A stretch of DNA of 64,000 nt from Escherichia coli (GCF_024700885.2 NZ_CP117016.1); one strand, 5' to 3'. Shown: positions 6,739 to 13,753, counted from the first letter of the stretch. Notes: generated from the letters alone by a model not told the origin. Made by a program: numbers and translations.

Positions 6739-7278
6739 ATGGCAAAACTTACCTTACAAGAGCAGTTGCTCAAAGCAGGATTAGTCACCAGCAAAAAAGC
6801 GGCGAAGGTCGAGAGAACGGCGAAAAAATCGCGCGTTCAGGCGCGTGAAGCTCGGGCGGCGGTAGAAGAAAATAAAAAGGCACAGCTTGAGCGTGATAAA
6901 CAGCTTAGCGAGCAACAAAAACAAGCGGCGTTGGCGAAAGAATATAAAGCTCAGGTGAAGCAGCTCATTGAAATGAACCGAATCACCATTGCCAATGGCG
7001 ATATTGGTTTTAACTTCACTGACGGCAATCTGATTAAGAAGATTTTTGTCGATAAGCTCACACAGGCGCAGTTGATTAATGGTCGTCTGGCGATTGCCCG
7101 CTTGTTGCTCGATAACAATAGCGAAGGTGAATACGCCATTATTCCCGCCAGCGTTGCCGATAAAATTGCTCAGCGTGATGCCAGCAGTATTGTGTTGCAC
7201 AGCGCGCTCAGCGCCGAAGAGCAGGATGAAGACGATCCGTATGCCGACTTCAAAGTGCCTGATGATTTGATGTGGTAA
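6739..7278 (+). CDS. yaiL: DUF2058-type uncharacterised protein
   Basis: ORF 6727..7278 trimmed to the MAKLTLQEQ start (179 aa); charged Lys/Glu/Ala-rich N-terminal region. Confidence 0.75.
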   Translation: MAKLTLQEQLLKAGLVTSKKAAKVERTAKKSRVQAREARAAVEENKKAQLERDKQLSEQQKQAALAKEYKAQVKQLIEMNRITIANGDIGFNFTDGNLIKKIFVDKLTQAQLINGRLAIARLLLDNNSEGEYAIIPASVADKIAQRDASSIVLHSALSAEEQDEDDPYADFKVPDDLMW

Positions 7279-7284
7279 ACATAG

Positions 7285-7400
7285 ATAAGTCGTGCGCAGA
7301 TGCCTGATGCGACGCTGCCGCGTCTTATCATGCCTACAAATTCCCGCGCCATCCGGAGGCCGGATAAGGCGTTCACGCCGCATCCGGCAATCGTGCACTA
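7285..7400. repeat. Pair of REP elements (BIME-like) between yaiL and frmB
   Basis: gatgcctgatgcgacgctgccgcgtcttatcatgcctaca followed by the inverted copy ggccggataaggcgttcacgccgcatccggca. Confidence 0.75.
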
Positions 7401-7403
7401 TTA

Positions 7404-8237
7404 TTAACGCATATTCAGTTTATTGGCGTGGTAGGCAATATGCTCGCCAATAAAACTGGAGACAAAATAATAGCTGTGGTCGTAACCCTCGTGATAACGG
7501 ATTAACGTCTTGATATTCATCGCCTGGCAGATCTTTTCAAGATTTGGAGTCCGCAGCTGTTCTGCGTAAAAATCATCACTCAACCCCTGATCAACCATGA
7601 TTTCCGCAACGCGTTGACCTTGTGAAATAAGACTCACCGGGTCGTAATCCAACCAGGCTTCTTTATTTTCACCAAGATATGCGGTAAAGGCTTGCTGTCC
7701 CCACGGTACTTGCGATGGGGAGACAATGGGCGAAAACGCTGAGACGCTGACATATTCATCTGGGTTACGTAACGCCAGCACCAGCGCGCCCAGCCCGCCC
7801 ATAGAATGACCTGAGATAGACTTTCTGGCCGTTGCCGGAAAATGTTGCATCACTAAATCCGGCAGCTCGTTGCGGATATAGTCATACATTTTGTAATGTT
7901 CATTCCACGGCGCTTGCGTTGCGTTCAGGTAAAACCCGGCACCTTGCCCGAGATCGTAACGGTCAGCATCTGCGACATGACTGCCTCGCGGACTGGTGTC
8001 TGGCGCAACAACAATAATGTTGTGCTCCGCCGCGTAACGCTGCATCCCCGATTTAGTAATGAAATTCTGCTCGTTGCAAGTCAGCCCTGAAAGCCAGTAC
8101 AACACCGGCAATTTTTCACTTGCGGCTTTTGGTGGGAGATAGACGCCGACATTCATTTCACATTTCAGTGATTGGGAATAATGCCGATACACATTTTGCC
8201 AGCCGCCAAAGCTGGCATGTTTTTCAATGAGTTCCAT
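7404..8237 (-). CDS. frmB: S-formylglutathione hydrolase (esterase D family)
   Basis: 277-aa ORF with GHSMGG serine-hydrolase motif; follows frmA. Confidence 0.9.
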   Translation of the reverse strand: MELIEKHASFGGWQNVYRHYSQSLKCEMNVGVYLPPKAASEKLPVLYWLSGLTCNEQNFITKSGMQRYAAEHNIIVVAPDTSPRGSHVADADRYDLGQGAGFYLNATQAPWNEHYKMYDYIRNELPDLVMQHFPATARKSISGHSMGGLGALVLALRNPDEYVSVSAFSPIVSPSQVPWGQQAFTAYLGENKEAWLDYDPVSLISQGQRVAEIMVDQGLSDDFYAEQLRTPNLEKICQAMNIKTLIRYHEGYDHSYYFVSSFIGEHIAYHANKLNMR

Positions 8238-8329
8238 CAGTCATTATCTCACGGTTAATCCCCCGGACGGCTGCCCGGGGAGAGTATTAAGAACCCCGTC
8301 TGAACTGGACGGGGTAAACCTGCGGGCAA

Positions 8330-9469
<1,140 letters not shown>

Positions 9470-9473
9470 TCAG

Positions 9474-9749
9474 CTATTTAAGATAGGCACGAACCAGTTC
9501 AATAGTGTCGTCAACGGATTGGCTGACTTCGCGGCTGTAGCAGTCATTTCGGTCAAACGTTTCCCGGATATGGCTTTCAAGCACTTCTGCCATCAGCCCG
9601 TTAGCCGCGCCCCGAACGGCAGCGATCTGTTGGAGTATGGCACGGCATTCGGCATCACCCTCCAGCGACCGTTCCAGAGCATCAATCTGCCCCCGAATAC
9701 GACGAACTCGAGTAAGGACCTTTTTCTTCTCTTCCGGAGTACTGGGCAT
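9474..9749 (-). CDS. frmR: formaldehyde-responsive repressor (CsoR/RcnR family)
   Basis: ORF 9474..9770 trimmed to [10 protein letters not shown] (91 aa); first gene of frmRAB. Confidence 0.85.
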
Positions 9750-9775
9750 TTCGCACCTCATCATCTGCACGCAAT

Positions 9776-9832
9776 ATACTATAGGGGGGTATGCTATATG
9801 TCAATGCATACCCCCCTATAGTATATAACACT
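9776..9832 (-). promoter_or_regulatory. frmRAB promoter/operator: near-perfect palindrome with G/C tracts
   Basis: atactatagggggg...cccccctatagtat inverted repeat immediately upstream of frmR; the G/C-tract-between-AT-arms architecture is typical of CsoR/RcnR-family operators. Confidence 0.6.
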
Positions 9833-9933
9833 GGAGAATAAAATTTATCCGGTGAATGTAGTCGGATAACAAAAAGTAAAGAGGGGCCTAATCGACAGGG
9901 AAGGCCGCCCCGGATAGCGGGCGGCAGAAGGAA

Positions 9934-10707
9934 TCAGAATTTCCAGGTCAGATGGGCTGCAAGTTGCAGACCGTTATAATCATCGGTTGGGGTGTCGTAC
10001 CACACTTTACCTGCCGTCAGCCCGAGATTAAGTTGCTCAGTCAGCGGTTGAATACGTTGCAAACTGACGCTCTTCATGCTGCCGTAGCGTGTTTCTGGCG
10101 TCCAGTCATAGGTGTAAGCACCTGTTCCGCGGCTTAGCCATAGTTGCGTATAACCAGTGCCGCGCGGGTCATTCAGACGCACGGAAATCATATTGCTGTA
10201 ACTACCACCTGCATCGCTGGAGTCATAATGGGTATAGCGGTAGCTGGAGATCACCGGGCCAGTATAGAGTGATACGCCGCCTTGCCAGGCATCGACTTCG
10301 ACATCATCGTAATATTTAGTGTAGCGATAACCGGTCGTGAAAAGCGTTTTTGGCAACAGTGCCAGGTTAATATCCTGACGAAAATCCTGGCGGGCAAAGA
10401 CCGGCGTATTATCCGCAAAGGCAATACCCGTTCGGGTTGTCAGCCAGTTATTCCATTTATACCAGACCGCACCCTGACCGCGAGTGGCATTGAAATGTTC
10501 AGTTTCATAATCACGACGCCCCTGGGAAAGATTAAAAAGCAGCGTTGCGTTTTCAACTTTCGCCACCAGTTCAGCATACGCTAAATTACGGTTGCCATGA
10601 TCACCAGAATAATCGGTAAAATCGTAGCCCGCGGTAATGGAAGTTAACCCGGCATAAGCGGGCAATGTGCTAAAAATTGCTGCCGCTAATAACGTCCGTT
10701 TTATCAT
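9934..10707 (-). CDS. yaiO: outer-membrane beta-barrel protein
   Basis: 257-aa ORF with N-terminal signal peptide (MIKRTLLAAAIFSTLPAYA), alternating aromatic beta-strand pattern and C-terminal ...WKF. Confidence 0.8.
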   Translation of the reverse strand: MIKRTLLAAAIFSTLPAYAGLTSITAGYDFTDYSGDHGNRNLAYAELVAKVENATLLFNLSQGRRDYETEHFNATRGQGAVWYKWNNWLTTRTGIAFADNTPVFARQDFRQDINLALLPKTLFTTGYRYTKYYDDVEVDAWQGGVSLYTGPVISSYRYTHYDSSDAGGSYSNMISVRLNDPRGTGYTQLWLSRGTGAYTYDWTPETRYGSMKSVSLQRIQPLTEQLNLGLTAGKVWYDTPTDDYNGLQLAAHLTWKF

Positions 10708-10708
10708 T

Positions 10709-11419
10709 TTAATCTCCTGTACGGATAAGTTCTTGTCGGAGTGAATAAGTTCCGGGAGGTAAATTACGTTCTACAATCACGCGCGGGCCAAGTTGCGTGT
10801 TCGGGGAAATAATTCGCCCAGGCAAAATAATAACTTGTACGCCAAGGCGTGAACGCTGCCCGATATAACAACCTAATTTATCGCATTCGGTAGCGATAAT
10901 TCCCTCTGGAGTTCGAACAGACACGGGCTGTTGATCCAGACGATGATTACTGGTACGTACTTGTGCGCCCAAATATGCCTGGTTTGCAACTACCGAGTCG
11001 GCGATAAAGCATTGCGGACCAATCGTTGCTTCCGCTTCAATAACCGCATTTTTAATTTCGGTGGCAAAACCAATTTTTACGCCATTGCTGATTATTGTGC
11101 CAGGACGAATAAACGCATAATTACCTATCAGGCAGTTTGCGCCAATCACTACCGGACCCTGAATAACGGCACCGTGACAAATACGGGTATTCGCGCCGAT
11201 AACAACTTCACCTGCAGTTTCATCAATAATTACCTGGTCTGCAATCTGAATATTTTTCTCTTTAACATTAAGCTTCAGAAAGTTTTTCAGTTCCTGTGAC
11301 AGAAGATTGGGAATAAGCGGTTGACGCTTCCACCAGTGCGGAATAGCGGGTGGGTTTGTCGCGCTGAGGTTCGCGTCCAGTAAAAAAGGCAATAAGTCCA
11401 TAAATAATCCAGATGGCAT
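10709..11419 (-). CDS. yaiX: hexapeptide-repeat (left-handed beta-helix) acyl/acetyltransferase; true start probably downstream of 11419
   Basis: Repeated [LIV]-G-x-x-x-x-I hexapeptide pattern; the maximal ORF overlaps the yaiP 3' end by about 150 nt, so a shorter start is likely; uninterrupted here. Confidence 0.65.
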   Translation of the reverse strand: MPSGLFMDLLPFLLDANLSATNPPAIPHWWKRQPLIPNLLSQELKNFLKLNVKEKNIQIADQVIIDETAGEVVIGANTRICHGAVIQGPVVIGANCLIGNYAFIRPGTIISNGVKIGFATEIKNAVIEAEATIGPQCFIADSVVANQAYLGAQVRTSNHRLDQQPVSVRTPEGIIATECDKLGCYIGQRSRLGVQVIILPGRIISPNTQLGPRVIVERNLPPGTYSLRQELIRTGD

Positions 11420-12464
11420 AAGCTAATAATACATACACAACGGAAAGCGGTGCTAAAGGCACCAACAACCAGCAACGATGAAACCAGGCGCTAAAAGCAC
11501 CAATAACACAAACTACGCCGACCCAGATAAGCGGAAACATTGCCAACACCACACCATGCGGCCCGGTGGTAATGAATTCATTAAACCAGGTAGTGAGATA
11601 AATCCCAACGCCATAAAGCACAACCAACAGCATAGGAAATATACTGAAGATACCGAAGCGGCTAAATAAAAGCCTTTTATGCAGGCGCATACAGACCGCG
11701 TAGCCCACAATCCAACGCCGCCAGCGACGCCACTCCTCACGCGGGCTGTTGCATTCCTGTGGGTATACGATGCAGCGATTCGCCTGCCGAATACGATAGC
11801 CGTTTGCCACCAATGTCCAGGTGAGATCAAGGTCTTCGACTTTAGTACGATCGGAGAAACCGAACTTACGCAATACATCAGTACGGAACATCCCGCAGGC
11901 ACCGCTGATAATAAACGGTGCGTCGCCCAGGAGCTGCTGTAGCGTGCGCTTCATAACAATCATCGGCAACTTTACGGTCGCGCGGATGTGCGGTAACAGA
12001 CCCGCGCCTTTCAACGCAGTAGAGGGAATGCCGCCTACGGCATCAGCACCGCGCTCTATTTCTGCCAGCATATAGCCCATTCCGTCTTGATCGGGCGGAA
12101 CATAGGTGTCGGCATCACTTAAAAAAACCTGGTCGCAGGTGGCGTAATTGAGGCCATTCATCAGCGCACCACCTTTACCGGTATTTTTTTGCGTGACGGC
12201 AATAAAGCGGTCGCCCCATTTGCGTTTGACTTCCGCCATGACCGCTTCGGTATTGTCCGTGGAGCCGTCGTTAACGCAAATTACCCGGCAAAAATAAGGG
12301 TTACGCAGTAGATTATCCAGTGACTGTGCCAGACACGGGCCTTCGTTATACGCAGGTATAATGGCGTCAATACAACCTTTTTTTTGGCTGGGCTTACGCC
12401 TTAACGTACTCAGGAACCATAGCAATATTGCTACGGCCATACATATAAATATCCAGGTTTTCAT
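11268..12464 (-). CDS. yaiP: family-2 glycosyltransferase with C-terminal membrane domain
   Basis: 398-aa ORF; N-terminal TM segment, GT-A fold signature (PAYNEG ... DAD) and multiple C-terminal TM helices. Confidence 0.85.
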   Translation of the reverse strand: MKTWIFICMAVAILLWFLSTLRRKPSQKKGCIDAIIPAYNEGPCLAQSLDNLLRNPYFCRVICVNDGSTDNTEAVMAEVKRKWGDRFIAVTQKNTGKGGALMNGLNYATCDQVFLSDADTYVPPDQDGMGYMLAEIERGADAVGGIPSTALKGAGLLPHIRATVKLPMIVMKRTLQQLLGDAPFIISGACGMFRTDVLRKFGFSDRTKVEDLDLTWTLVANGYRIRQANRCIVYPQECNSPREEWRRWRRWIVGYAVCMRLHKRLLFSRFGIFSIFPMLLVVLYGVGIYLTTWFNEFITTGPHGVVLAMFPLIWVGVVCVIGAFSAWFHRCWLLVPLAPLSVVYVLLAYAIWIIYGLIAFFTGREPQRDKPTRYSALVEASTAYSQSSVTGTEKLSEA

Positions 12465-12473
12465 GCAATTTGC

Positions 12474-13145
12474 TCAAAGAATCATTTTATGAATTACAAA
12501 GCCTTCACCCAGATCGCTATTGACCTGTTGCCCGCGAAATTGTGCAACTGCACGCAGGCGATCATGACGCATATAATCGCGTCGTTCCTGGCTTTTATGT
12601 TTTTTTAATGCAGCAAGTTTGGCTGTGAAATATTCTTCTTTAACGGATTCAAAAACCTGAGGCATAAATGAAAGCCAGGTACTCGGGGTTTCGTAGCCGA
12701 GAATTTGTGGAATAGTGCGGCAGGCAACCATTGAAGCTTGATAAACAGCGAGATGATCCTGATGGCGGTCGGCATCATGCATGGTATATACCCGCATGAT
12801 TTCAACATCAGAAGGAATTTGATTTTTAATGATATCTTCCAGGGCGGAAATCATATCATTGAGCTGTAAATGCGCGCGGGTGTCAGCAAAATTAAGATGA
12901 ATAGTTTGGTGGCACCCTAATATCTTTAGGGCGTTGCGCGATTCTTCATGGCGATCGATTATTCCATCTGTGCCAGAGTTGCCGGTAGTCATCACCACGG
13001 CTGCGATATAAATTCCTTTTTGCGCAAGACGAGCAAGCGACGCGCCACAGCCCAATTCTATATCGTCAGGATGTGCGCCAATAGCAAGGATACCCTTTCT
13101 TTTATTTGCCGAAGAAAGGATGGCTGAATCTAAAACCTTATCCAC
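12474..13145 (-). CDS. yaiS: LmbE/PIG-L family N-acetylglucosaminyl deacetylase-like protein
   Basis: 223-aa ORF with N-terminal AHPDDIELG motif characteristic of PIG-L/LmbE zinc deacetylases; exact start uncertain. Confidence 0.78.
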   Translation of the reverse strand: MDKVLDSAILSSANKRKGILAIGAHPDDIELGCGASLARLAQKGIYIAAVVMTTGNSGTDGIIDRHEESRNALKILGCHQTIHLNFADTRAHLQLNDMISALEDIIKNQIPSDVEIMRVYTMHDADRHQDHLAVYQASMVACRTIPQILGYETPSTWLSFMPQVFESVKEEYFTAKLAALKKHKSQERRDYMRHDRLRAVAQFRGQQVNSDLGEGFVIHKMIL

Positions 13146-13289
13146 TTAATGACACTCCATTTTATTTATTATACTACAAGCACAACGATGCCCGCAGAGA
13201 CGTAATCTCTGGCACAGACAGATGCTAATTTTTAAGTGTTAAAAATTACTGATAGCTGAAAAATAAGGGGCTTTCAGGTACGGGGATAC

Positions 13290-13753
13290 GACTGCGTAAT
13301 CTTTTATGTAGTTCATATGTTAAGTGTTTGTGTGTTTGGTTTGTATAGTTATTTTGTTTTATATATTGTATTTAGATGTGATTTAGTTTGTCAATTAATT
13401 ACATATTAAAAATATGTTCTAGGCACAAATATGGATTATATACATTATGTGAATGTATTATGTGGTTGATTGAGAATGATACAGTTATATATGCAATGTG
13501 AATATAATGATTTCATTATATGTATTGCTGTTAGTAAAATAAAAGACATTATGTTCTGCTTGTTTATGCATTAATAAAAATGAAGTGCAGTAACTTACTG
13601 AATTGTCAGAGTGGGTGTAATTGCATATTTAATCTTTCCTTTGCCGCTTTTTTGCTAAGAATAAAATCATCTGTGCGATAACGACTAATTCTTTTAATGA
13701 ATGTTTTTATTCCTGAATACTGCTCCTATAACAAGACAGGGGAGCAGACAATC
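13290..13753 (+). promoter_or_regulatory. AT-rich tauABCD promoter/leader region
   Basis: Long AT-rich tract with phased A/T runs directly upstream of tauA; tau operon is known to be sulfate-starvation controlled (CysB/Cbl); individual sites not resolved by eye. Confidence 0.5.

Follow-up and report, generated by a model that had tools for sequence, protein, structure and literature searches.

A mobile yaiS-yaiP-yaiX-yaiO cluster of Escherichia coli as a candidate synthase-type system for a surface glycan

Introduction

Accounts of aggregation and biofilm formation by Escherichia coli usually invoke curli, cellulose, PNAG, colanic acid and Antigen 43. In PNAG systems of the PgaABCD/IcaADBC type, the deacetylases PgaB and IcaB have the CE4 fold and act in the periplasm, and the outer-membrane protein PgaA combines a 16-stranded barrel with TPR repeats. 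In the core of Nod-factor synthesis, NodC makes N-acetylglucosamine chains, the terminal residue of which is deacetylated and then acylated; NodB is a CE4 enzyme. The GPI, mycothiol and bacillithiol pathways employ soluble or peripheral GT4 enzymes together with a cysteine ligase, an inositol acyltransferase or other later enzymes. In PIG-L/LmbE enzymes, AHPDD-type and HxDH motifs supply the His/Asp/His metal ligands and the catalytic Asp. Those PIG-L enzymes that have been characterised use either a lone GlcNAc linked to an aglycone or, in chitobiose, the terminal GlcNAc; diacetylchitobiose deacetylase removes the acetyl group from the non-reducing GlcNAc of chitobiose.

Here we compare with these systems the cluster yaiS-yaiP-yaiX-yaiO, located in a 64,000-nucleotide stretch of an E. 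coli genome (NZ_CP117016.1), hereafter referred to as the window. The cluster is best read as a minimal system of the synthase type for an aggregation glycan, silenced by H-NS and with cytoplasmic tailoring enzymes, and its product is most likely an amino-sugar surface polymer causing clumping.

Results

Organization of the cluster and its control regions

The window shows 100% identity to E. coli strain MLI114. An ORF scan found four minus-strand ORFs within positions 9934-13145 (Table 1), in agreement with the tight same-strand packing described in an earlier, sequence-only reading of the window. The yaiS and yaiP genes are separated by 9 nt, yaiP and yaiX overlap, and yaiX and yaiO lie 1 nt apart with an AGGAG Shine-Dalgarno sequence at their junction. 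No insertion sequence was found in the four-gene cluster of the window; as that reading had also stated, yaiX is unsplit here and carries IS2 in K-12. The 223-aa yaiS ORF of the window is the full-length form, and the K-12 reference YaiS (185 aa) is a truncated one, with a CAG to TAG (amber) change at codon 186 (window position 12590). Automatic annotation labels the intact yaiS a pseudogene, wrongly.

The start of yaiX is uncertain: the ORF of 236 codons (10709-11419) opens at 11419, an ATG is found at 11401, and PGAP takes a CTG at 11290. Comparison with orthologues, among which an MDLLPFLLD start and a WW motif are conserved, favours the ATG at 11401; the PGAP annotation shortens the gene. 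The start of yaiX overlaps the 3' end of yaiP at every locus, which suggests coupled translation.

Table 1. Features of the yaiS-yaiP-yaiX-yaiO region (window coordinates)
Feature	Position	Strand	Description
yaiS	12474..13145	-	223 aa, GTG start, GGAG upstream; predicted cytoplasmic PIG-L/LmbE-family de-N-acetylase, full length
yaiP	11268..12464	-	398 aa; predicted inner-membrane GT2 with synthase-like fold; one helix at the N-terminus, about four at the C-terminus
yaiX	10709..11401	-	predicted cytoplasmic left-handed beta-helix protein, relative of the GlmU-type N-acetyltransferase domain; overlaps the 3' end of yaiP
yaiO	9934..10707	-	257 aa; outer-membrane 14-stranded beta-barrel; signal peptide ends AYA|G
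yaiS-tauA AT-rich spacer	13146..13696	.	GC 0.29-0.35; probably controls the operon and is bound by H-NS
sigma-70-like promoter candidate upstream of yaiS	13365..13394	-	TTGACA, 18-nt spacer, TACAAT; 11/12 matches
GC-rich 7-bp hairpin directly 3' of the yaiO stop	9904..9925	-	possible operon end; no U-tract

The yaiS/tauA spacer of K-12 was described as a "promoter island" and is listed as H-NS-associated in three columns of Table 1 of that work (PMC3661553). The promoter candidate of the window is a pattern match from a consensus scan, and the region upstream of yaiS contains fewer sigma-70-like matches than shuffled sequence. The hairpin 3' of yaiO folds with -19.2 kcal/mol, a weak signal (z = -1.7), and in view of this value and the missing U-tract a canonical intrinsic terminator was rejected at this position. 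The search for known RNA elements in and around the operon returned only a chance match to a miRNA model, on the frmR operator palindrome, and PADLOC matched none of the four proteins to anti-phage defence.

Distribution, mobility and selection

The 3.9-kb region is covered by at least 80% in 4250 of 5426 complete E. coli genomes, and yaiP alone in 4819 (89%); the intact cluster is common, not exceptional, in this species. Outside E. coli, all 16 loci with a YaiP orthologue, found in Citrobacter, Salmonella, Acinetobacter, Stenotrophomonas, Pseudoxanthomonas and metagenome-assembled genomes, have the identical four-gene order, so the linkage is far beyond chance, and the cassette proved co-conserved when co-occurrence was examined. 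The flanking genes differ at each of these loci. A contig scan with YaiP alignment, in which VICV[ND]DGS, one of two patterns used, was generic, recovered at least eight true orthologous loci with identity of at least 60%, the next among the matches listed having at most 32%. In ST131 the cassette occupies a second chromosomal site, and it is carried by conjugative IncF plasmids, in one case at a distance of about 4 kb from cnf2. Purifying selection acts on each of the four genes, with dN/dS values of 0.06-0.25 that include comparisons within E. coli. In our view the four genes probably form a single operon that is transferred horizontally as a module, by which a hexosamine-based surface glycan would be made and exported for cell adhesion.

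The cluster is damaged or missing in several strains. Besides the IS2 insertion and the amber codon in K-12, these losses comprise an IS1-associated deletion in E. coli C, the absence of the cluster from O157-type strains and IS3 insertions in the region in some genomes. Together with the AT-rich, H-NS-associated upstream region (PMC3661553) and an antisense RNA originating inside yaiP (PMC4666370), they could indicate a decaying island of horizontally acquired leftovers, silenced by H-NS and functionless in present-day E. coli, the intact state of which would mean nothing. This explanation is very unlikely, being opposed by the low dN/dS of all four genes, by the presence of yaiP in most genomes, by catalytic residues that are invariant across families of Gammaproteobacteria, by the carriage of the cassette on conjugative plasmids and by a phenotype. 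Namely, repair of yaiX in K-12 resulted in YaiP-dependent clumping, according to a 2011 meeting abstract only, as cited in EcoGene 3.0 (PMC3531124). Since this clumping was seen in a background with truncated yaiS, YaiS may not be needed for it. The literature searched does not identify the product of the four genes, and the breakage of the operon in two places in K-12 may explain this; the earlier description of the product as uncharacterised thus holds, although with the clumping the locus is not wholly unexplored.

YaiP, a predicted membrane GT2

The proposal that YaiP is a membrane GT2 gained support from both motifs and fold. The motifs NDGSTD, DAD, VEDLD and RWRRW do not vary among 26 sequences, and in the alignment to PgaC, to the E. 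coli form of which YaiP is 27% identical, every PgaC catalytic motif is present. The D, DxD, (T/V)ED and Q/RxxRW signatures of processive membrane-integrated GT2 enzymes (BcsA, hyaluronan and chitin synthases, PgaC, NodC) are present, in a GT-A domain to which interface and transmembrane helices are appended. The PNAG synthase family PgaC/IcaA (TIGR03937) is the best sequence model for YaiP, with 99.6 bits versus at most 43 for others, but the score is far below its cut-off of 422.3 bits; NodC gives 29 bits versus a cut-off of 550. A profile search against PDB gave nothing beyond generic matches in the N-terminal half, the GT-A part, and fold searches were required. The structural model, of moderate confidence (pLDDT 73), matches hyaluronan synthase (HAS) and BcsA over 313-326 residues with a sequence identity of only 15-16%, and full-length processive synthases, membrane helices included, rank first by fold. 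By its model YaiP is a membrane GT2 resembling hyaluronan and cellulose synthases, although unlike class I hyaluronan synthases and BcsA it is smaller (398 aa) and lacks a PilZ domain or a BcsB-like partner. A predicted cytoplasmic motif at its C-terminus is conserved; the RxxxR inside it is only a hint of a c-di-GMP receptor.

YaiS, a predicted cytoplasmic de-N-acetylase

YaiS has the motifs of the PIG-L/LmbE family (PF02585), AHPDD (H25, D27, D28) and HQDH (H128, D130, H131), which align to the matching motifs of diacetylchitobiose deacetylase 8bgn, its best solved relative (48 bits, residues 4-218 aligned). All these His and Asp residues are invariant in 16 orthologues, as are H183, S185, Q186, R189, Y191, F203, R204, G205, Q207, E214 and F216. 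YaiS is predicted to be a PIG-L-type zinc de-N-acetylase with its metal and catalytic residues kept, and a loss of metal-binding residues, which would have spoken against the deacetylase of the sequence-only reading, can be set aside on this ground.

The likeness to GPI, mycothiol or bacillithiol synthesis that the same reading had drawn is loose. It is sound in so far as YaiS shares the superfamily and the HPDD and HxDH motifs with the deacetylases of the pairs PIG-A/PIG-L, MshA/MshB and BshA/BshB. It fails in that YaiS is below all the equivalog cut-offs: the best NCBIfam match, BshB1, reaches 80.3 bits (profile 4-223 of 226) versus 182.5, with BshB2 (27.5 versus 195), Mca (20.7 versus 277) and MshB (20.3 versus 224) lower still. 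Moreover, the gene lists of the yai loci contain no GT4 enzyme, cysteine ligase or inositol acyltransferase, and the adjoining transferase is a GT2. PgaC/PgaB, IcaA/IcaB and NodC/NodB/NodA are closer analogies. The yai cassette shares with PgaABCD/IcaADBC a membrane GT2, a de-N-acetylase and an outer-membrane barrel in one operon, as well as an aggregation or biofilm outcome, but YaiS is predicted to be a cytoplasmic PIG-L protein and not a periplasmic CE4 one. In this respect the arrangement would resemble the Nod-factor pathway, where a membrane GT2 is followed by a cytoplasmic deacetylase acting on the terminal residue and then by a cytoplasmic acyltransferase; the fold of NodA differs from that of YaiX, and an outer-membrane barrel stands in place of a NodIJ-type exporter.

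YaiX, a beta-helix protein of uncertain activity

YaiX is homologous to the C-terminal domain of GlmU and ST0452, a hexapeptide-repeat beta-helix. Its best solved relative is this domain of ST0452 (78.8 bits, residues 68-224 aligned without gaps to ST0452 241-397), the best NCBIfam match is Arch_glmU with 127.5 bits, below the cut-off of 292, and the Pfam matches are LbH_EIF2B, Hexapep and LbH_GLGC. In the alignment to ST0452 and GlmU (numbering of the 236-codon ORF), YaiX keeps R105, E121, K123, N158, R160 and D162, all of which are invariant in 15 orthologues. The position of the catalytic His (H308 of ST0452, H363 of E. coli GlmU) is taken by P135, also invariant in the 15 orthologues, and that of the neighbouring Tyr311 of ST0452 by F138, which is Phe or Tyr among them. 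Therefore, of the acyltransferase claimed by the sequence-only reading the GlmU-type homology stands and the GlmU-type catalytic His does not, and the assignment is uncertain. Mutants of ST0452 at H308 reportedly retain part of the GlcN-1-P acetyltransferase activity, so this His may not be essential.

The replacement of His by Pro also raises the alternative of a YaiX without enzymatic activity, which would structurally support or regulate YaiP in the manner of PgaD, IcaD or a nucleotide-sugar sensor and leave YaiS as the sole tailoring enzyme; the system would still be a synthase, with one tailoring step. The Phe or Tyr at the Tyr311 site, the non-catalytic beta-helix domains (LbH_EIF2B, LbH_GLGC) among the best Pfam matches and the coupled translation suggested by the overlap with yaiP agree with this role, for which the conserved C-terminal motif of YaiP could serve in docking. 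Nevertheless, YaiX matches the ST0452 domain, which is catalytically active, better than any other, the six substrate-binding residues are kept, and the His is possibly dispensable. We regard a purely non-enzymatic YaiX as somewhat unlikely.

Both proteins lack export signals (no signal peptide is visible in the YaiS sequence), so they must act in the cytoplasm. This location fits a substrate in the inner leaflet and thereby a glycolipid or lipid-linked pathway, in which a non-processive YaiP of the GT21, monoglucosyl-diacylglycerol-synthase or PcManGT kind would put one or a few GlcNAc residues on a membrane lipid at the cytoplasmic face, YaiS would deacetylate them, YaiX would re-acylate the amine, and YaiO would be a receptor or conduit for the surface amino-glycolipid. 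Such a pathway is the closest version of the GPI-like logic of the sequence-only reading, and also of Nod-factor logic. It agrees with the substrates of the characterised PIG-L enzymes and the nearest solved relative of YaiS, with the match of YaiP to Pfam Glyco_transf_21 (2.6e-7) and with the sugar-1-phosphate-binding residues that YaiX retains from GlmU/ST0452. We consider it quite unlikely, because PNAG synthase is by far the best sequence model of YaiP, the best fold matches of the latter are processive synthases, and no flippase or ABC exporter genes were found in the gene lists of the loci. In addition, clumping, as far as the abstract cited in EcoGene 3.0 describes it, is more typical of a polymer (PMC3531124).

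YaiO, an outer-membrane barrel

YaiO has been located to the outer membrane (PMC4453288). It matches TIGR04390/PF19413 over the whole profile (1-230 of 230) with 183.9 bits versus a cut-off of 32, its homologues carry PF19413, and its model is a high-confidence 14-stranded barrel without a plug; the barrel suspected earlier is thus genuine and travels with the enzymes. A sequence search found no solved structure for YaiO even at E = 10. The nearest fold relatives are CymA and OmpG, monomeric sugar channels with 14 strands (identity 8-13%), from which YaiO differs by very short loops and by its genetic tie to a biosynthetic and not an uptake operon; CymA also has an N-terminal plug segment. A crude in/out phasing of the strands gave a lumen rich in Tyr, Ser, Thr and Gly with mixed charge, too rough to infer the charge of a polymer.

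As in the Pga, Bcs, Alg and Pel secretion systems, an outer-membrane barrel is encoded next to the synthase, YaiO adjoining it in 16 of 16 loci. Unlike them, the yai cassette has neither a TPR scaffold nor a cyclic-di-GMP receptor or co-polymerase. The YaiO model consists of the barrel only, the gene lists of the loci show no TPR gene, and among 117 representatives of the family, nearly all full-length members of which have about 255-285 aa, no TPR-fused or N-terminally extended relative was found at the sensitivity of phmmer. No PilZ-, PgaD-, Alg44- or PelD-type domain was present in the Pfam/NCBIfam results of the four proteins, and these results and the gene lists revealed no periplasmic modifying enzyme in the cassette. 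In comparison with PgaABCD/IcaADBC, the cassette has no PgaD-like partner and has an extra beta-helix protein.

Discussion

In the synthase reading, transcripts would begin within the AT-rich spacer, bound by H-NS, that precedes yaiS, and their level would normally be low. YaiP in the inner membrane would polymerise a chain, probably from a donor of the UDP-N-acetylhexosamine type, and pass it through its own transmembrane helices, by analogy with hyaluronan, cellulose and PNAG synthases. For YaiS and YaiX, the latter a beta-helix protein with a predicted amino-sugar-phosphate-type pocket, the most plausible task would be to change the N-acyl group on the donor, on the primer or at the non-reducing end of the elongating chain, not on the finished polymer. 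The plug-less YaiO barrel could serve for exit of the chain or for its retention on the surface.

The packing, conserved order, mobility and selection of the genes speak for this reading, as do the modelled YaiO barrel, the invariant YaiS residues that suggest catalysis, the clumping reported in the abstract cited by EcoGene 3.0 (PMC3531124) and the H-NS-associated spacer (PMC3661553). On the contrary, parts of the known Gram-negative synthase systems are missing, YaiX lacks the canonical catalytic His, and the YaiP model is of moderate confidence. The role of YaiS and YaiX also counts against it, since a polymer translocated during synthesis is beyond the reach of cytoplasmic enzymes.

Tentatively, and with somewhat less than even chances, the cluster may represent an unrecognised minimal class of synthase-dependent surface-glycan systems, comprising a HAS/PgaC-like synthase, a scaffold-less 14-stranded channel and two cytoplasmic enzymes that swap N-acyl groups on the donor or primer. 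The resulting hexosamine chain would be N-acyl-modified or partly free-amine, unlike PNAG, chitin and hyaluronan. Plasmids and islands would disseminate the system as a factor in aggregation or colonisation. Such a class would have been hidden from E. coli genetics because of the IS2 in yaiX and the amber codon in yaiS of K-12. The Xanthomonas biofilm cluster xagABCD, described as a putative glycosyltransferase cluster with a BcsB-like gene in the xagA position in iron oxidisers, looks unlikely as a named equivalent; it was compared by published descriptions, and those consulted mention no PIG-L or beta-helix protein.

If the cluster makes a further surface glycan, most natural isolates, with yaiP in 89% of complete genomes, hold an adhesion factor missing from the K-12 model, and the same factor is present on some virulence plasmids and in the opportunistic pathogens Acinetobacter, Stenotrophomonas, Citrobacter and Salmonella. 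Its list of parts is unusual in that the PIG-L and beta-helix proteins are cytoplasmic and the 14-stranded barrel stands without a TPR scaffold, and it would then illustrate to what small size a Gram-negative system for polysaccharide export can be reduced.

PCR assays widely target yaiO as an "E. coli-specific orphan", although the gene belongs to a mobile cassette that also occurs in other genera and is missing from O157:H7.

Organization of the locus

The four genes yaiS, yaiP, yaiX and yaiO form an uninterrupted cluster on the minus strand, for which the coordinates and description of the sequence-only reading were correct. A gap of 9 nt separates yaiS from yaiP, yaiP and yaiX overlap, and yaiX is followed after 1 nt by yaiO, this last junction having an AGGAG. 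The cassette lies between frmRAB and tauABCD, and the 3.9 kb region around it matches strain MLI114 at 100% and K-12 at 96% identity. The 550 bp yaiS-tauA spacer has a GC fraction of 0.29–0.35, contains one strong promoter match, and is among the "promoter islands" for which H-NS association was recorded (PMC3661553). Downstream of yaiO only a GC hairpin lacking a U-tract was found. An antisense RNA originates inside yaiP (PMC4666370). A near-perfect long palindrome just upstream of frmR, overlapping a TTGACA-17-TAGTAT promoter match, is probably the FrmR operator and promoter; the miRNA-family match at this palindrome in the Rfam scan had a low score and was considered spurious.

Features of the cassette region (positions in the window)
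Feature	Position	Strand	Description
yaiS	12474-13145	-	223 aa, GTG start, GGAG upstream
yaiP	11268-12464	-	398 aa
yaiX ORF	10709-11419	-	
yaiO	9934-10707	-	257 aa
Sigma-70-like match	13394-13365		TTGACA-18-TACAAT, yaiS-tauA spacer
YaiP motif TGREPxRDKPTRY	11331-11378		residues 362-374
ykiC	12489-12608	+	39 aa
Palindrome	9776-9826		upstream of frmR

PGAP places the yaiX start at a CTG at 11290 (193 aa), and the ST131 annotation gives a 174-aa protein. Non-enteric YaiX orthologues start with M-W-W and enteric ones share MDLLPFLLD...WW, so that the CTG start would cut off the conserved WW. Because this conserved N-terminus lies upstream of the PGAP start, the alignment suggests that yaiX is misannotated and that translation would begin at ATG 11401, yielding a 230-aa protein. 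From this codon yaiX overlaps the 3' end of yaiP by 134 nt, and in the overlap the yaiX frame is conserved better than the YaiP tail.

Conservation and mobility

Loci were gathered from homologues of YaiO and YaiP, their surrounding contigs, and a genome scan. All 16 non-E. coli loci found with a YaiP orthologue of at least 60% identity (tblastn), two near-duplicate pairs included, carried YaiS, YaiP, YaiX, and YaiO in the same order. The hosts were Citrobacter, Superficieibacter, Salmonella, Acinetobacter, Stenotrophomonas, Pseudoxanthomonas, and several metagenome bins, and one C. braakii genome had two copies. Among the matches listed, the next YaiP-like proteins below the 60% level had at most 32% identity and no partner genes. 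The flanking genes varied from locus to locus. Citrobacter has hemB with a two-component system there, Salmonella a PapB-like regulator together with CcdAB and an integrase, Acinetobacter rpoBC, and a metagenome contig an MvaT-type gene.

In ST131 a copy with 91.5% identity occupies another chromosomal site (locus L089, NZ_CP051615.1, 2999-6205), where its neighbors are an IS66 remnant and PAPS-reductase/IbrB-like genes. This copy is a mosaic, with 63% identity to the window protein for YaiS and 94%–97% for YaiP, YaiX, and YaiO. The ST131-type allele was also found in E. coli on conjugative IncF plasmids of 115–184 kb. Matches in the plasmid database were typed as conjugative in 24 of 32 records, at least five of the 32 being megabase-sized chromosome-like sequences filed as plasmids. 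On the bovine plasmid KS-NP019_P1 (L092, NZ_AP024124.1) the cassette (6999-10197) and the toxin gene cnf2 are about 4 kb apart. Pairwise dN/dS for all four genes was 0.06–0.25. The cassette is a mobile, selected, four-gene module.

Status in E. coli and lesions in K-12

The absence of an insertion sequence from yaiX here and the interruption of K-12 yaiX by IS2 were both confirmed. DNA alignment revealed a second K-12 lesion, in yaiS codon 186 (12588-12590), which is CAG here and TAG in K-12, the changed base being 12590. Alleles were counted with 55-mer queries centered on this base, which each 28-base seed had to include; among genomes free of other differences nearby, CAG was found in 2,221 complete genomes and TAG in 355, of which the rows sampled were almost all K-12 laboratory derivatives. 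The amber codon sits at Q186 in the invariant HxSQ motif and makes the 185-aa reference protein of K-12 a truncated form. Since 38 residues, nine of them invariant, are deleted, this protein is probably crippled.

In 4,819 of 5,426 complete genomes at least 80% of yaiP was covered, at up to seven places in a single genome. From the allele counts, this coverage, and the K-12 lesions it follows that the intact cassette is the normal state of E. coli and that K-12 is a double mutant. The intact copy in the window is unremarkable by itself because it represents the common wild-type state; its value is that it reveals a widespread, mobile, and testable module doubly broken in K-12. E. coli C has a deletion associated with IS1. 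In O157-type strains the cluster is missing, and the neighbors of frmR are ferric ABC-transporter genes. The absence of yaiO from O157:H7 was also reported (PMC4453288). In the O157-like strain 350 (L090, 4110-8042) fbpC and other genes follow frmR, replacing yaiO through tauA, and the region adjoining frmR thus appears variable. As an "E. coli-specific orphan," yaiO is in wide use as a PCR marker, but it is missing in O157-like strains and occurs in Citrobacter, Salmonella, Acinetobacter, and others.

The small ORF ykiC, whose product differs from K-12 YkiC by one residue, is antisense to full-length yaiS and falls entirely within its 3' end. In a 100%-identical genome PGAP annotates ykiC and treats the intact yaiS as a pseudogene, labeled "incomplete," that spans only 12735-13145. 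The label seems to be an annotation artefact passed on from the truncated K-12 reference.

Properties of the encoded proteins

Pfam matches of YaiP were family-2 glycosyltransferase domains. Its top NCBIfam model was the PNAG synthase PgaC/IcaA with 99.6 bits, well under the cut-off of 422, the runner-up model scoring 43 bits. YaiP is 27% identical to E. coli PgaC over 240 residues, with the motifs NDGSTD, DxD, SGxxxxFR, (T/V)EDxDxxW and RW-xx-G in register; these shared motifs are invariant in 26 YaiP orthologues (61%–84% identity) from several families of Gammaproteobacteria. YaiP has the fold of membrane-integrated synthases, and the fold alone does not tell processivity. A cytoplasmic stretch at the end of the last membrane helix, TGREPxRDKPTRY, was present in all 26 aligned orthologues with most positions invariant. 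Its RxxxR spacing resembles that of cyclic-di-GMP-binding PilZ domains, and a role in docking YaiX or YaiS is equally conceivable.

The assignment of YaiS to PIG-L/LmbE-type deacetylases was borne out: AHPDD (H25, D27, D28) and HQDH (H128, D130, H131) are retained and invariant in 16 orthologues, as are H183, S185, Q186, R189, Y191, F203, R204, G205, Q207, E214, and F216. The top NCBIfam model, BshB1, matched end to end with 80 bits, under its cut-off, and the best solved structure was diacetylchitobiose deacetylase (48 bits, residues 4-218). No signal peptide was present in YaiS.

The closest relative of YaiX was the C-terminal amino-sugar-1-phosphate acetyltransferase domain of Sulfolobus ST0452 (78.8 bits), whose residues 241-397 aligned without gaps to YaiX 68-224 (numbering of the 236-codon ORF); the Arch_glmU model gave 127 bits, under its cut-off. 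Equivalents of GlmU R333, E349, K351, and N386 are kept as R105, E121, K123, and N158, and the motif VRTSNHRLD is invariant among orthologues. ST0452 H308 and GlmU H363, the catalytic histidine in each enzyme, align to P135, and a nearby tyrosine aligns to F138; an independent alignment with E. coli GlmU (offset 228) agreed with the ST0452 alignment in this placement. All 15 orthologues aligned keep P135 (motif GPQCF/Y), position 138 being Phe in most and Tyr in two. Given this proline and top Pfam matches to non-catalytic beta-helix families, YaiX may be either an acyltransferase of an unusual kind or a partner that is not an enzyme. The earlier acyltransferase label needs revision.

The YaiO family is small: a set of 1.84 billion proteins contained 117 representatives at the 50% identity level. 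Almost every full-length member has about 255–285 aa. Outer-membrane localization was shown experimentally by Marani et al. (2006), as cited in PMC4453288. A yaiO transposon mutant was recovered in a screen of uropathogenic E. coli for altered type 1 fimbrial expression (PMC6727828).

Proposed function

No paper identifying the product was found in the literature searched. According to a 2011 meeting abstract, as summarized in EcoGene 3.0 (PMC3531124), repair of the K-12 yaiX pseudogene causes clumping during growth, which requires YaiP. Restoring yaiX in this way would also lift the polar effect of IS2 on yaiO, and the strain background carried truncated yaiS.

The best-supported interpretation is a minimal synthase-type surface-glycan system. 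YaiP would make and translocate a hexosamine-based chain, and YaiO would provide passage through, or an anchor in, the outer membrane. YaiS and YaiX would be cytoplasmic and act on the donor, the primer, or the end of the growing chain, and H-NS would hold the operon quiet. The main rival, a glycolipid pathway with a non-processive YaiP, accommodates the cytoplasmic enzymes better but agrees less well with the sequence and fold matches and the clumping phenotype. The general logic proposed from sequence, a HexNAc glycoconjugate made and then modified, holds, while the comparison with GPI-anchor and mycothiol synthesis should be revised.

The proposed surface-glycan system works like Pga/Ica, but YaiP misses the PgaC cut-off, a TPR scaffold and a PilZ/PgaD partner are lacking, and YaiS differs from PgaB and IcaB in superfamily and compartment. 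The logic of cytoplasmic tailoring is shared with NodC/NodB/NodA, but the NodC cut-off is missed as well. Thus, the cassette is not a member of the Pga/Ica or Nod families; the kind of system is already known, and the combination of parts is new.

In the actinobacterium Mumia quercus (L019, 5287-7107 and 9948-11783), a PgaC-like family-2 glycosyltransferase (PgaC/IcaA model, 166 bits) is encoded about 3 kb away from a fusion of a response-regulator receiver and a PIG-L deacetylase adjoined by a histidine kinase, one distant example of a synthase-like glycosyltransferase paired with a PIG-L enzyme.
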